Below, one piece after another: positions 59,719 through 64,000 of a stretch of DNA of 64,000 nt. Position numbers and translations under genes: made by a program. The notes beneath the pieces were generated by a model. That model saw only the letters and a list, made by a program, of their open reading frames with translations. It ran no database searches and had not been told where the DNA came from. Position 1 is the stretch's first letter. The number at the start of each line of letters is the position of its first letter. Origin of the DNA: Candidatus Hodarchaeota archaeon (GTDB lineage Archaea > Asgardarchaeota > Heimdallarchaeia > Hodarchaeales > Hodarchaeaceae); the NCBI GenBank assembly GCA_016840035.1, contig JAEOTC010000038.1:1-64000 (forward strand), read 5' to 3'.

Positions 59719-60684
59719 CTAATAATCGAGGGGAGGACCATCACGAATACCTTGAGGAGTGATATGATAGACTGCTTCTCTTTCAGCTAATTCGGGTGAA
59801 TCAAATATACGAGCAATACGTGCAGTTCCCCTTGATTTACGTAATAGGATTCTATGAGTAGGTCTATGACCCCATGCAAATCCCAATGCAGGTTCCAAAT
59901 TTTGTGCTCCTGAGAATAGATTATCAGGGTTACTAAGAATTTGATTTGTAGTTATAATAGCTAGTTTGTAGCTATCTGCTAATCGTTGAAGAGTTTCCGC
60001 ATGAGCCATAAGCGTCTGTTGACGTCTTGGAAGGTTCTCTTTCCCAGGAAATTCGGCGCGGAAATGTGATGCCATAGAGTCGATGACTACTAATCGAATA
60101 TTGTTTTCCTCAATGATTTTGTCTGCATTCTTGATCAACTGAATCTGGTGATCTGAATTATAAGCACGACTCACAAAGATATTGTTTAAGAATATTTTTG
60201 GATCATCTGTAAACGAATATGCCATTTCGGCTACCCTTGCGGGAGCAAATGTATTTTCTGTGTCAACAAAGAGAGCTTTTCCTTCTAATCCTCCTTCTTC
60301 TACGCTTCGTTGAACATTTAGACATAATTGAAATGATATTTGTGTTTTTCCGGTTGCAAATGCTCCACTAAATTCTGTAATGGATCCAACAGTAATTCCT
60401 CCTCCCAAGATGTCATCAAGTGATTGTGAAGAGGTGGTAATTCTAGGTTTTGTTAACTCTTGCTTCAATAGTGATGCTGCTGTTGTTGGTTGGTTCATTC
60501 CAATGACTTTTCTTGCTTGATTCACTGCTCGTTCTGCAGATGACTTACTTACTTCGCAGCGTTCCATTACTTCACTTGGAGGAGTCGCAGCTAGCGCCAT
60601 TAGACTAGGAAACTCTTCCTCAAGTCGGCCTCGAAGCTCTTTTGCTACATTTAACTGAGTGAAATCATTTGTCTTGCTCATCAT
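59719..60684 (-). CDS. radA: RadA/Rad51 family recombinase
   Basis: N-terminal HhH, LDDILGGG, GAFATGKTQ, DTENTF, HFRAEF, TNQ, DSPEL. Confidence 0.82.
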   Translation of the reverse strand: MMSKTNDFTQLNVAKELRGRLEEEFPSLMALAATPPSEVMERCEVSKSSAERAVNQARKVIGMNQPTTAASLLKQELTKPRITTSSQSLDDILGGGITVGSITEFSGAFATGKTQISFQLCLNVQRSVEEGGLEGKALFVDTENTFAPARVAEMAYSFTDDPKIFLNNIFVSRAYNSDHQIQLIKNADKIIEENNIRLVVIDSMASHFRAEFPGKENLPRRQQTLMAHAETLQRLADSYKLAIITTNQILSNPDNLFSGAQNLEPALGFAWGHRPTHRILLRKSRGTARIARIFDSPELAEREAVYHITPQGIRDGPPLDY

Positions 60685-60782: not shown

Positions 60783-61694
60783 CTACCGACGTATTTTTGT
60801 CATCAGGTAGTCAACTATTTTTTCAGCGACATTAATATTGGGATTCGCTATTTCAAACGCTTTCCACCCAGGACAGGCATTTACTTCAAGAACATACATC
60901 CCATTTGGTGTAGGAAATAGGTCGATTCCAGCCACTTCAATCTTTATTCTTTCGACTATTTGATGAACTAATTCTTCATCTTCCGTTGATAATGTATATG
61001 CTTCACAATTTGCTCCAAGGGCAAAATTTGTTCTCCATTCTCCTGTTAAAGCAGTTCGTTTCATACTCCCAATTATTTCGTTTCCTATGGAAAATACTCG
61101 TATATCGGCGGAGGGGGGAGCTTTATGCGGAGGCCCAGTTTGAAGATATTCTTGAATCATAATTGGTTCAGAGGATCGCATGAACAATGATTCAATTATT
61201 TCCTCAGCAGCTTTTGAATTGTAAGCCAACAGTGTTCCACTTCCCTGTGTTGCATCAGGTAGTTTGATTACCAATGGGAATTTGAAAGCTTTTAACAGTT
61301 GGTCTATCTGGAATGCGTTATTTATCAAGATCGTTTTTGGCAATTGGACCCCTTTAATCTTTGAGATGGTTTGATAGCACCGAAATTTATCCCGAGAAAG
61401 GAATAGCGCTTCTGCGGAGAGAGTACTTGGTATATCCATCAGTTCGAAGTGCTTCAGGCATAATACACCTAAATTTGTTTGTGATCTGCCTATACGTGGA
61501 ATAACCCCCAAAAGAGGGTGTAGTGATTGGTTTGCGAACCTAGCATCAGCTCCAGTAGAGCTAATTAGGGGAAAAACATATTGTGTAGAAAGGAAAACAC
61601 CAGAAACATCGTTTCTTTTATTTATGTCCTTTAGTAATTCGGTTGTCGGGAAATAATCCTTATTTCGACTTAGGACACCTATTTGTCTTGCCAG
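60783..61694 (-). CDS. RimK family ATP-grasp ligase
   Basis: VIPRIG, RDKF, IQEYL, WRTNF, LEVNACPG; the frame extends to a CTG at 61694, giving IGVLSRN. Confidence 0.85.
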   Translation of the reverse strand: MARQIGVLSRNKDYFPTTELLKDINKRNDVSGVFLSTQYVFPLISSTGADARFANQSLHPLLGVIPRIGRSQTNLGVLCLKHFELMDIPSTLSAEALFLSRDKFRCYQTISKIKGVQLPKTILINNAFQIDQLLKAFKFPLVIKLPDATQGSGTLLAYNSKAAEEIIESLFMRSSEPIMIQEYLQTGPPHKAPPSADIRVFSIGNEIIGSMKRTALTGEWRTNFALGANCEAYTLSTEDEELVHQIVERIKIEVAGIDLFPTPNGMYVLEVNACPGWKAFEIANPNINVAEKIVDYLMTKIRR

Positions 61695-61713: not shown

Positions 61714-61821
61714 TAGCCCCGCTCAGATTCGAACTGAGGTCAGAGAGAATTTCCACATAGCTTATACCGAATAAACTGATGTCATAGAACTCTCTATGAT
61801 GGACCACTACACTACGGGGCT
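61714..61821 (-). tRNA. tRNA with Gln-type body and 35-nt BHB intron; predicted spliced anticodon CUA
   Basis: AGCCCCG/CGGGGCU acceptor, CUCAG-UUCGAAU-CUGAG T arm, GAGAG/CUCUC anticodon stem, canonical BHB. Confidence 0.85.
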
Positions 61822-61825
61822 GAAA

Positions 61826-62029
61826 TTAACGAATTGGGCTTGAAAAAGTCAGAATATCGTCAATAAGTTCCACGTGTGTTATTAACATCCTTCTGCAGCA
61901 GTATCGTTTCAATTCAAAAGAATCGAGTAACTCTGATGCTTCTTTACCTGCTTTCAAACCATCTAAAAAATCATCATAATACTGAGCAATAACTTTACCG
62001 CAGGTATAACATCGGATTGGAATCATCAT
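61826..62029 (-). CDS. rpoN: RNA polymerase subunit Rpo10 (N)
   Basis: IPIRCYTCGK, RYCCRRM. Confidence 0.97.
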   Translation of the reverse strand: MMIPIRCYTCGKVIAQYYDDFLDGLKAGKEASELLDSFELKRYCCRRMLITHVELIDDILTFSSPIR

Positions 62030-62045
62030 GGTTATTGATCACCCT

Positions 62046-62699
62046 TTAGAATCCATCATCACTCATGGGACGGCGGCCGCGTGGAGCTCTAAACAATTCT
62101 ACTCGCATTTGAGCATCTTTCTCGGGTGTTAATTCTCCACGTTCACGGAGTATCTCCTTAGTTAATAACCAAAAGATCATTGCTAATGAATTGCGTCCTT
62201 TGTTGTTGCATGGAATTGCTAGATCGATATTCTTTATTGTATTATCAGTATCGACCAACGATATCACTGGTATTCCCATTCGATATGCTTCTTTAAGCGC
62301 TTGATGATCAAAATGAGGATCAGTGATCAAAATGCTTGTTGGTTCAACGAAATTATAGCGTCCTTTAATATTTGGATTTGTAAAAATTCCTGGAATGAAT
62401 CTTCCAGTAATCGGAACGGCACCGGTCACTTTGCAGAACATTTCTACAGGATAAATTCCGTACGCTCTAACGCTGCATGCTGCTACTCGTGACATATCTT
62501 GACGAGCAAGGAATTTTGCTGCTGTACGGATTCGATCATCAGTTTTATGGACATCTAATACATATAGACCATCACTTCGTGTCCGATAAATTGCCCAATC
62601 CATGCTTTTCATTCCGCTGGAGGTTCCTATATGGACACCAGCCTTCAGATAATCTTCTAGAGGGGTGAGCAACTCTTCTTCTTGTGTAGGGGTTGTCAT
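62046..62699 (-). CDS. rps2: 30S ribosomal protein uS2
   Basis: AGVHIG, GRFIPG.FTN, TDP..DHQA, DTDN, PCNNKG. Confidence 0.97.
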   Translation of the reverse strand: MTTPTQEEELLTPLEDYLKAGVHIGTSSGMKSMDWAIYRTRSDGLYVLDVHKTDDRIRTAAKFLARQDMSRVAACSVRAYGIYPVEMFCKVTGAVPITGRFIPGIFTNPNIKGRYNFVEPTSILITDPHFDHQALKEAYRMGIPVISLVDTDNTIKNIDLAIPCNNKGRNSLAMIFWLLTKEILRERGELTPEKDAQMRVELFRAPRGRRPMSDDGF

Positions 62700-62806: not shown

Positions 62807-63598
62807 TCAAGAAAAGAAATTGAATTCAATCGTTTTTTGCTCTGAATCAGCCCAAGAGGCTTTCTTTGACTTCACCATTAATTTCATTATTATTTGTAAA
62901 TCCTTAGGGGGTAGTGATGACCAAGTTTGGTTCATTTTGACCATGTCGTATAGAGTTACCATCTCAAATCCATTTTGGAAGCTGTAATTAAATATTTCTT
63001 CTGCAAAAGAATTTAGGGTCTTCCAATATACTCGAAGGCGCGTTTCGTCTGTGTCCCACCATGTGGCTTTTTCCTGTTCAATCAAATATTCGGAAATGGC
63101 TTTGAGTTGCGGGATCGAGAGTTTTTTATGGAGAATTCCATTTTGAAAGGGATAGACCAAACTAATTTCTTGAAGGTCAAGAATATGCTGATTCAAAACT
63201 CTTGCGAATGCAAGTAAAAAGTCTCCCCATGTGATTAGCCATTGTTGTTTTAACTCTGGATCTTCTGGGATCATCCAACGCCAAGGTTTCGATACCCAGC
63301 CTGGTAATATTGGCTTAACATTTGGATGAACAGTTCCAGGTTTTAACTCTGAGATGGATATTCTCTCTACTGGCTTGGTTACCACTTTTTCGACTGTTAA
63401 TGTTCTAGATGGAACTTGAATTTGTGGTAAAGTATGGGTTATTGTTTCTTTCTCAAACTTTGGTGTTTCAACCTTAGATGGGGCGGAAGAATCCGTAGTT
63501 ACATCTTGAAGGACTTCTTCAAGGACATCAATATTACTTTTTTTCTTCTCGACCTTTTCCTTCTTTCGTTGTAATTCTGCCATCCAAGAACAACTCAA
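62807..63598 (-). CDS. ESCRT-II Vps25-like protein with N-terminal extension
   Basis: WGDFLL, PFQNG..KKL, ATWWD..VYWK..FAEEI, VTLYDM winged-helix pattern. Confidence 0.8.
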   Translation of the reverse strand: MSCSWMAELQRKKEKVEKKKSNIDVLEEVLQDVTTDSSAPSKVETPKFEKETITHTLPQIQVPSRTLTVEKVVTKPVERISISELKPGTVHPNVKPILPGWVSKPWRWMIPEDPELKQQWLITWGDFLLAFARVLNQHILDLQEISLVYPFQNGILHKKLSIPQLKAISEYLIEQEKATWWDTDETRLRVYWKTLNSFAEEIFNYSFQNGFEMVTLYDMVKMNQTWSSLPPKDLQIIMKLMVKSKKASWADSEQKTIEFNFFS

Positions 63599-63625: not shown

Positions 63626-64000
63626 TTATCCACCAAATTTATCTCGCCAATCATCATATCGTGCAAGTTCACTAGGAGCTACAGAAGGCCGAATATGTAT
63701 CATTGCATTATGAAAGTCTGTTGCTGTTGGAGCTCGTACTTGAACACTCATGTCTGTTAGTGCTCCCTCTGCATCTAATTCTCTAATTGGCTGCATTAAC
63801 GATTCACGACATAATAGTGCAATATCTGCCGCAGTATATCCTCCAGTGATTTCAGCTAATGCTCTGAAATCCACATCCGTATCTACTGGTACTCCTTTGG
63901 TATGGATTGAAAACATCACTTCCCTAGCCTCCTTGGTTGGAAGTGTCACATAAACACGCCGCTCAAATCTTCTTCGCATTGCAGCATCAATATCCCAAGG
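63626..64000 (-). CDS. Vps4/CdvC-like AAA ATPase, C-terminal part
   Basis: PWDIDAAMRRRFERRVYVTLP, MQPIRE, RPSV..YDDW..KFG; adjacent to Vps25. Confidence 0.85.
   Translation of the reverse strand, partial: PWDIDAAMRRRFERRVYVTLPTKEAREVMFSIHTKGVPVDTDVDFRALAEITGGYTAADIALLCRESLMQPIRELDAEGALTDMSVQVRAPTATDFHNAMIHIRPSVAPSELARYDDWRDKFGG

Follow-up and report, generated by a model that had tools for sequence, protein, structure and literature searches.

Introduction

As a rule, a suppressor tRNA is either a laboratory allele or part of an organism or phage with a rewritten stop codon. In supE-type amber suppressors (E. coli glnV44/supE44; yeast SUP70-type alleles), a tRNA-Gln(CUG) is mutated to CUA, and efficient amber suppressors typically have a purine at position 37 that supports the pairing of A36 with U. 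Ciliates and stop-recoded phages use tRNA-Gln(CUA/UUA); there the stop codon is reassigned and found in-frame throughout genes, and eRF1 or the release factor (RF) is adapted or bypassed. The pyrrolysine (Pyl) tRNA, tRNA-Pyl, is compact, with a long anticodon stem, a tiny D loop and a 3-nt variable loop. In this study, we analyzed a 64,000-nt stretch of DNA from a Candidatus Hodarchaeota archaeon (contig JAEOTC010000038.1, positions 1 to 64,000; hereafter the window), which carries near its end an intron-containing gene of archaeal tRNA-Gln type with the amber anticodon CUA.

The functionally closest known system is the supE-type suppressor. As in that system, a tRNA-Gln(CUG) has undergone G36>A, a second gene covers CAG, and UAG is still a stop codon. 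However, supE-type suppressors are laboratory or rare alleles that are charged by glutaminyl-tRNA synthetase (GlnRS) and have a purine at 37, whereas the Hodarchaeales tRNA is fixed in six wild species with two origins, has U37 and an intron, and belongs to the pathway of glutamyl-tRNA synthetase (GluRS) and the amidotransferase GatDE, not to the genome's GlnRS. With tRNA-Pyl systems it has in common that an archaeal CUA tRNA coexists with UAG stops, so that UAG would be ambiguous; it differs from them in the lack of PylS and PylD, in its ordinary tRNA-Gln body, and in its directly visible descent from tRNA-Gln(CUG). Like the ciliate and phage tRNAs, it is a Gln tRNA with a stop-reading anticodon; unlike them, it stands in a genome in which no reassignment, no in-frame TAG in the genes compared and no change in aRF1 were seen.

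The ciliate codes are covered in PMC4967479. Orphan 'tRNAPyl' genes without Pyl genes have been described in Lokiarchaeia and Thorarchaeia, with no role assigned, and none in Heimdallarchaeia (Sun et al., PMC9723677; PMC12626013); the tool of Sun et al. would have missed an intron-containing CUA gene. Archaea are said to form Gln-tRNA only indirectly, without GlnRS, and G73 is the bacterial discriminator (PMC9499178, PMC8762117), A73 being the archaeal signature of tRNA-Gln (PMC9499178). Like the archaeal transamidation tRNA-Gln, the substrate of non-discriminating (ND) GluRS and GatDE (PMC2943598, PMC2978374, PMC9499178), the window tRNA has A1-U72, A73 and standard D and T loops; unlike it, the window tRNA has CUA for YUG and U37 for G37, and its host genomes lack the standard GatDE and carry a divergent paralog. 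Heavy and unusual interruption of Asgard tRNA genes by introns has been reported in a preprint (bioRxiv 10.64898/2026.10.13.758758) that does not mention CUA, Gln or suppressors. In a full-text literature search, no paper turned up that describes an archaeal CUA tRNA derived from tRNA-Gln or that connects GlnRS with Heimdallarchaeota; the only natural archaeal CUA tRNA in the literature searched was tRNA-Pyl.

Results

Anatomy and predicted splicing of the tRNA gene

The gene consists of the following features (window coordinates, evidence in brackets).

61714..61821, minus strand: pre-tRNA gene, 108 nt, archaeal tRNA-Gln-type body, one intron (sequence, ARAGORN intron mode, spliced cloverleaf, orthologs in 14 congeneric genomes)
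61784..61821, minus strand: 5' exon, 38 nt (positions 1-37 including 20a), ending in UUCUAU
61785..61787, minus strand: anticodon CTA (TAG on the plus strand; CTG in CUG-type orthologs) (ortholog alignment and class-wide pattern scan)
61784..61784, minus strand: position 37, U (G in all CUG orthologs)
61749..61783, minus strand: canonical 37/38 intron, 35 nt, hBHBh' motif of the bulge-helix-bulge (BHB) type (pair check on 15 orthologs)
61714..61748, minus strand: 3' exon, 35 nt (positions 38-73), ending with discriminator A73 (sequence, spliced cloverleaf)

An earlier reading of the window from its letters (the sequence-only reading) had assigned a Gln-type body from A1-U72, the GUGU/UCAU D stem and A73, and both the sequence and the spliced cloverleaf bear this out. 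The acceptor stem AGCCCCG/CGGGGCU starts with A1-U72 and is followed by U8 and A9, the discriminator is A73, and CCA is not encoded. The D stem GUGU/UCAU leaves U13.U22 unpaired, and the D loop AGUGGUCCA has 9 nt with GG; the anticodon stem GAGAG/CUCUC has 5 bp, the variable loop has 4 nt, and the T arm reads CUCAG-UUCGAAU-CUGAG. With a standard 5-bp anticodon stem, a 9-nt D loop with GG and the T loop UUCGAAU, the body is not tRNA-Pyl-like, again as that reading had held. The gene therefore has the A1-U72/A73 signature and the orthology of an archaeal tRNA-Gln, and lacks a YUG anticodon reading CAR.

In the anticodon arm, GAGAG UUCU AUG ACAU ... AUGU GGAA AUU CUCUC, 42 nt are enclosed by the anticodon stem. 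They form a BHB with a 4-bp central helix (UUCU/GGAA), two 3-nt bulges (AUG and AUU) and a 4-bp inner helix (ACAU/AUGU), in which 13/13 pairs were standard. With one cut in each bulge, after its second base, 35 nt are removed and the 7-nt loop UUCUAUU is left, giving the anticodon CUA and U37. The same call (cta, 35-nt intron) was obtained from ARAGORN with introns allowed, and the 73-mer spliced by script folded into a flawless cloverleaf. The clean BHB and the UU-CUA-UU loop proposed by the sequence-only reading were thus recovered by both the pair check and ARAGORN. The window gene shows the features of a canonical archaeal BHB intron at 37/38, and in 15/15 orthologs the same tRNA frame shows a 5-bp stem, a central helix of 4 bp and bulges of 3 nt for this intron.

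Because of its intron, the tRNA gene at 61714-61821 escaped detection by ARAGORN at default settings and by Rfam in both gathering and E-value modes. Standard tools found only about 20 tRNAs in the genome, a low count in keeping with how heavily tRNA genes are interrupted in Asgard archaea. Minimum free energy folding of isolated anticodon arms with RNAfold slipped register in the AU-rich helices and did not recover the BHB, and the arms were instead checked pair by pair in the frame of the tRNA. ARAGORN calls of 'cta', 'ctt' or 'aaa' for several CUG orthologs were rejected as products of odd intron placement; the BHB frame gives CUG (CUA for locus L002).

An edited tRNA was one of the options of the sequence-only reading. 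The mature tRNA might still read CAG, through editing or modification that turned A36 into a G-like base, or through non-canonical or stacked splicing that restored CUG. The unusual interruption of Asgard tRNA genes makes odd processing conceivable, and nothing supports this idea directly. The standard 37/38 BHB is present in 6/6 CUA genes, and there is no conserved G at either junction. The 3' bulge begins with A in 6/6 CUA orthologs, so a cut shifted by 1-2 bases would still yield CUA. Moreover, G37>U co-evolved with the anticodon change and is not needed for restoring CUG, and we know of no A36 editing activity. We therefore consider a CAG-reading mature tRNA highly improbable. A sequence error, which had been listed among the earlier options, is excluded as the source of CUA: TTCTAT is found in five other species, making six that carry it, and two assemblies agree, the site being covered by contigs from two DNA runs with zero differences (runs that may derive from source samples).

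Orthologs, selection and two origins of the CUA form

The genome of the window (G000; G-numbers denote relatives' genomes and L-numbers loci) is a 4.3-Mb assembly with 36% GC and 87% completeness. We searched 60 relatives by DNA for matches to the tRNA gene, and full-length matches including the intron were found in 14 congeneric genomes. The order rps2-rpoN-tRNA-rimK-radA was present in 15/15 genomes, 6 with CTA and 9 with CTG. In the window, the neighbours are as follows.

61826..62029, minus strand: rpoN, RNA polymerase subunit N (Pfam PF01194, E 1e-26)
62046..62699, minus strand: rps2, ribosomal protein S2, upstream syntenic anchor (Pfam PF00318; synteny in L001-L014 and L019)
60783..61511, minus strand: RimK-type ATP-grasp gene, downstream syntenic anchor (Pfam PF08443, E 2e-39; synteny)
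59719..60684, minus strand: radA, Rad51/RadA recombinase, further syntenic anchor (Pfam PF08423, E 2e-73; synteny)

The rps2-rpoN-tRNA-rimK run noticed earlier is confirmed by these Pfam matches. The rpoN stop codon, TAA, ends 4 nt before position 1 of the tRNA, which makes co-transcription likely. The loop is TTCTAT (CUA, U37) in G000, G002, G004, G014, G020 and G005, and TTCTGG or CTCTGG (CUG, G37) in the other nine genomes. The exons of the window gene and the nine CUG genes at this locus are almost the same. These results identified the window gene, by synteny, as an ortholog of the archaeal-type tRNA-Gln(CUG) (A1-U72, A73) that follows rps2-rpoN in this Hodarchaeales genus, and showed that G36>A and G37>U have converted the anticodon loop from YUCUGGN to UUCUAUN in six species. 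The sequence-only reading had rightly called U37 atypical, since it is found in 6/6 CUA genes against G37 in all CUG orthologs; at the orthologous locus, which it had proposed to compare, nine congeners have CTG and five other species have CTA. A pattern scan of Heimdallarchaeia for a Gln body with CTA returned 6/83 genomes, all of one genus.

Five of the CUA genomes (G000, G002, G004, G014 and G020) form one tight group, hereafter the CUA clade, in a tree of three flanking proteins, and the sixth, G005, lies outside it as sister to the CUG genome G019 (support 98/98), whose exons and intron those of G005 resemble. Forcing the six CUA genomes together costs 30 log-likelihood units (approximately unbiased (AU) test, p=0.0008), and the minimum number of changes to CUA is two. 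The placement of G005 and the rejection of a single CUA clade indicate that G36>A and G37>U arose twice.

The tRNA is dispensable in the genus: downstream of rpoN it has been cleanly deleted in G006 (L077) and G011 (L075), and in G018 (L076) it is a degenerate remnant with the T arm destroyed. These losses would suit a neutral relic, that is, a gene made redundant by the arrival of GlnRS, mutated in its anticodon, functionless and heading to decay. The CUA genes themselves argue otherwise. Within the five-species CUA clade, identity is 95.9% in the exons, 64% in the intron and 79.5% in the 200-nt 3' flank. Exon differences in this clade preserve pairing, with a compensatory A27-U43 in one species and G10.U25>G10-C25 in two. 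All six species have intact helices, T and D loops and a BHB that can be spliced, and the identical double change occurred twice. The tRNA gene is under purifying selection and is not decaying, and we regard a neutral relic as very unlikely. We are highly confident that the gene encodes a functional, selected tRNA with the mature anticodon CUA.

At one further locus, L044 of G010 (G010:C1:3963581-3963689), a putative ortholog, an A73 tRNA-Gln(CUG), apparently has C33 (loop CCCUGGA) at a position where U is near-universal.

Two glutamine tRNA families and a bacterial-type GlnRS

Two families of Gln tRNAs are present in the genus, an archaeal type with A73 and no CCA, and a G73 type. The archaeal-type family comprises the rpoN-locus gene and, in many species, an intron-containing UUG gene elsewhere. 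The G73 family is a tandem UUG and CUG pair, located in G000 at C69:67594-67821, with CCA encoded in both genes and an intron in the D loop of the UUG gene. About 600 nt from this pair lies a GlnRS gene (G000 C69:65401-66975), and the pair adjoins the GlnRS gene in G000, G002, G014, G012 and G019. GlnRS scored 691 bits on TIGR00440 (cut-off 426). Its G019 ortholog, 66% identical to that of G000, scored 677 bits with the P. aeruginosa, 637 bits with the E. coli and 438 bits with the human GlnRS; judged from these matches, the enzyme is of bacterial type. GlnRS above the cut-off was also seen in other Heimdallarchaeia families.

G000 has exactly three Gln-type tRNAs, G73-UUG, G73-CUG and A73-CUA, and the normal Gln tRNAs that the sequence-only reading had suggested looking for are therefore present. 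Since the G73 UUG and CUG tRNAs are accompanied by GlnRS, CAA and CAG are covered without the CUA gene. The CUA tRNA is the sole archaeal-type Gln tRNA left in the CUA clade, from which the archaeal-type UUG gene is absent. That UUG gene is intact in genomes with the type I GatDE described below, has acceptor-stem mismatches in G019, and has A1.G72 as its first pair in G006.

Two GatDE paralogs, two GluRS types and the state of the tRNA

GatDE occurs as two paralogs at different loci, types I and II, which are only 35-43% identical to each other. Identity within type I is 61-72%, and within type II it is 75-92% for GatD and 57-80% for GatE. GatD-II keeps the asparaginase-type catalytic motifs. 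GatE-II keeps 78/98 invariant residues in the catalytic half and 2/30 in the last quarter, and its GatB_Yqey and GAD domains are no longer detected by Pfam. Judged from these residues, GatE-II has kept the catalytic cradle and has a remodelled C-terminal tail, the part that binds tRNA in known GatE. The type II tail was found in 8/400 Asgard genomes, all of one genus, namely the six CUA genomes, G019 and G006. In G019, direct tblastn showed type I GatD and GatE to be intact, and both GatDE types are therefore present in this genome. The distribution is as follows.

G000 C111:13268-16553 (locus L062:4269-7554): GatE-GatD operon, type II
GatDE-I present in G001, G003, G008, G009, G012, G013, G016, G019 and G021: rpoN-locus tRNA is CUG in 9/9
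GatDE-I not found in 9 genomes: six have CUA at the rpoN locus, G006 and G011 have lost the tRNA by deletion, and G018 has a pseudogene

The CUA form was seen only where GatDE-II is present, and G011 and G018, which have no GatDE at all, have lost the tRNA.

Two GluRS types, about 30% identical, were also found in the genus (L105-L112), one (type B) in G002, G014, G005 and G001 and the other in G012, G008, G010 and G009. G001 combines GluRS type B with GatDE-I and has only A73 Gln tRNAs, a gene set from which we infer that type B is presumably an ND-GluRS. The ND-GluRS of M. thermautotrophicus lacks the G36-recognition loop of GlnRS (PMC2978374).

Neighbouring genes

Directly upstream of the rps2-rpoN-tRNA unit, on the minus strand, the window carries an ESCRT-II subunit gene and a Vps4 C-terminal/AAA-lid gene at 62807-63598 and 63626-63979; ESCRT-II and Vps4 are eukaryote-signature genes typical of Asgard archaea. 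The S2 protein is 95-99% identical to those of metagenome-assembled genomes named Candidatus Hodarchaeota and Heimdallarchaeota (B3_Heim, YT2_004).

Discussion

A weak natural amber suppressor as the favoured reading

The reading that we favour, tentatively and at somewhat less than an even chance, is that the window gene encodes a weak natural amber suppressor charged via the indirect pathway. The sequence-only reading had named a weak amber suppressor among its options; this stands as the leading reading, and suppression itself is a prediction. In this scenario, a bacterial-type GlnRS beside its own G73 tRNA-Gln(UUG) and tRNA-Gln(CUG) would have taken over the decoding of CAA and CAG, and the standard GatDE (type I) would then have been lost in some lineages. 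Without GatDE-I, an archaeal-type tRNA-Gln(CUG) charged with Glu by an ND-GluRS would be a liability that places Glu at CAG, and selection would remove the old tRNA from sense decoding by deletion, by decay or by a move to CUA. Among the one-step options from CUG, UUG would keep the problem, CUC (Glu) would be right only if the tRNA carries Glu, and CUA alone would read no sense codon.

GatDE recognizes its tRNA by the D loop and the first base pair and does not read the anticodon; given this, and an ND-GluRS without the base-36-reading loop, the CUA tRNA can plausibly still be glutamylated. The divergent GatDE-II would then probably amidate Glu-tRNA to Gln-tRNA(CUA). A pyrimidine at 37 weakens decoding, so the Gln-tRNA(CUA) would compete poorly with aRF1, and the outcome would be low-level or conditional UAG read-through inserting Gln. 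The gene does place CUA in an otherwise functional-looking elongator body, and the purine at 37 of efficient suppressors is replaced by U in 6/6 genes.

UAG usage and the points against suppression

A series of observations weighs against this suppressor reading. The expression, splicing and charging of the CUA tRNA are predicted only, and two runs labelled metatranscriptomic contributed no sequence to this stretch. U37 is what would be expected of a tRNA selected not to decode well. A GluRS gene was not found in the 87%-complete G000 assembly. The association of GatDE type with tRNA state amounts to only 2-4 phylogenetically independent contrasts, with a sign test that was not significant, so this link is suggestive and not statistically established.

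The remaining points concern UAG usage. In G000, TAG ends 22% of open reading frames (ORFs) of at least 150-200 aa, and the distance from there to the next in-frame stop has a median of 8-9 codons, the same as after TAA and TGA. The share of TAG among stops is 22% in G000 and 26% (n=105) in G005, both CUA species, and 19% in G012 and 18% in G019, both CUG species, so no depletion of TAG stops was seen in the CUA genomes of this comparison. Neither backup stops nor the +4 base after TAG differed, and coding potential in the 30 codons past TAG equalled that past other stops, with no excess. When 10 pairs of TAG-joined ORFs were translated with TAG as Q, no Pfam domain ran across the TAG in any of them; each candidate was either two separate neighbouring genes or a complete protein with non-coding sequence behind it. 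We also searched 585 ORFs from two CUG-type relatives against G000 by tblastn. About 280 had orthologs, the comparison covered about 7% of genes, and no in-frame TAG was found in real genes among these alignments; the stops inside the high-scoring segment pairs lay only in antisense or pseudo-frames and N-terminal overhangs. The stop-recognition motifs of aRF1, which is single copy per genome, are identical in CUA and CUG genomes.

Three side observations arose here. The N-domain motif of aRF1 is TATNIRS, where NIKS is usual, and it is invariant in the genus whatever the state of the tRNA (11 genomes; G000 C233:7394-8614, loci L173-L182). A partial second aRF1 copy together with an identical tRNA-Gly(UCC) is found at a contig end (G000 C125:1-812, C233:7394-8712); we take it for redundancy in the assembly or overlap between strains rather than for a second release factor. 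Finally, ARAGORN called a 'tRNA-SeC(tca)' with a 48-nt intron at G000 C71:6372-6508, a call that is probably erroneous rather than a sign of an opal-reading tRNA.

The same results decide against a recoding of UAG to Gln or Pyl, whether genome-wide or in a sizeable gene set. Recoding would account for the CUA tRNA, and ARAGORN labelled the window gene 'tRNA-Pyl'; that label derived from the anticodon alone and was rejected. Against it stand the 22% share of TAG stops with extensions like those after TAA and TGA, the lack of TAG-spanning domains and of in-frame TAG in orthologs, the unchanged aRF1, and the body, which is not Pyl-like. In addition, no cluster (recoded island) of TAG-containing ORFs was found in G000, and the searches for PylS and PylD (TIGR02367, TIGR03911) gave only sub-threshold matches of 28 and 26 bits in this genome. 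The genetic code is unchanged, and UAG is an ordinary, frequent stop codon. Genome-wide recoding, which the sequence-only reading had argued against from the use of TAG as a stop, is refuted, and recoding of a sizeable gene set is scarcely credible; a handful of specific target genes remains conceivable, given the share of genes compared with orthologs.

For the suppressor reading itself, the missing genomic footprint is not proof of inactivity, because Pyl-using archaea also lack universal compensation. In M. acetivorans, UAG serves as a stop and also as a Pyl codon, and Pyl archaea have no universal stop-codon compensation (PMC12626013), and the Asgard Sifarchaeia combine Pyl with 21% UAG stops (PMC9723677).

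A decoding-silent tRNA and a dedicated UAG-decoding pair

A genome without adaptation to suppression would also be expected if the tRNA were silent in decoding and kept for a job outside the codon table, with its anticodon parked on a stop and further disabled by U37, for example as a substrate or activator of GatDE-II or in another tRNA-dependent process. The parallel evolution of a pyrimidine at 37 in both CUA lineages favours this explanation, as does the position of the CUA tRNA as the only archaeal-type Gln tRNA remaining in its clade, and as does the retention of the CUA form only alongside GatDE-II, with deletion or decay where there is no GatDE. On the other side, G006 has GatDE-II without the rpoN-locus tRNA, G019 has GatDE-II with the CUG form, and GatDE-II may serve the G73 tRNAs instead. 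Gln-tRNA(CUA) also has no obvious fate besides the ribosome, and we know of no non-translational role of tRNA-Gln in archaea. A silent tRNA, the form in which the repurposed tRNA-like RNA of the sequence-only reading survives, is the main rival of the suppressor reading; it is possible, and in our judgement unlikely.

Beyond weak suppression, the CUA tRNA and GatDE-II could form an emerging dedicated UAG-decoding pair. Such a pair would be an orthogonal, tRNA-dependent route by which UAG is read as Gln, or as a residue derived from Glu, conditionally or in a few genes. We hold this to be quite unlikely.

Implications

In this genus, a Gln tRNA has moved onto UAG, under selection in six wild species and twice independently, in genomes where UAG is still a common stop. 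The genus offers a rare natural experiment in aminoacylation, in which a bacterial-type GlnRS and tRNA pair stands beside the archaeal GluRS/GatDE pathway, GatDE and GluRS each occur as two paralogs, and whether the old tRNA-Gln is kept, deleted, decayed or amber goes with the amidotransferase that the genome has. Provided that the CUA tRNA is charged and decodes, it would be a living intermediate of stop-codon capture, and an orthogonal tRNA/enzyme set would be ready to hand. A CUA tRNA that does not decode would point to a non-translational use of a tRNA. If the tRNA and GatDE-II do form a dedicated UAG-decoding pair, this would be early stop-codon capture in the closest archaeal relatives of eukaryotes, reached twice independently.

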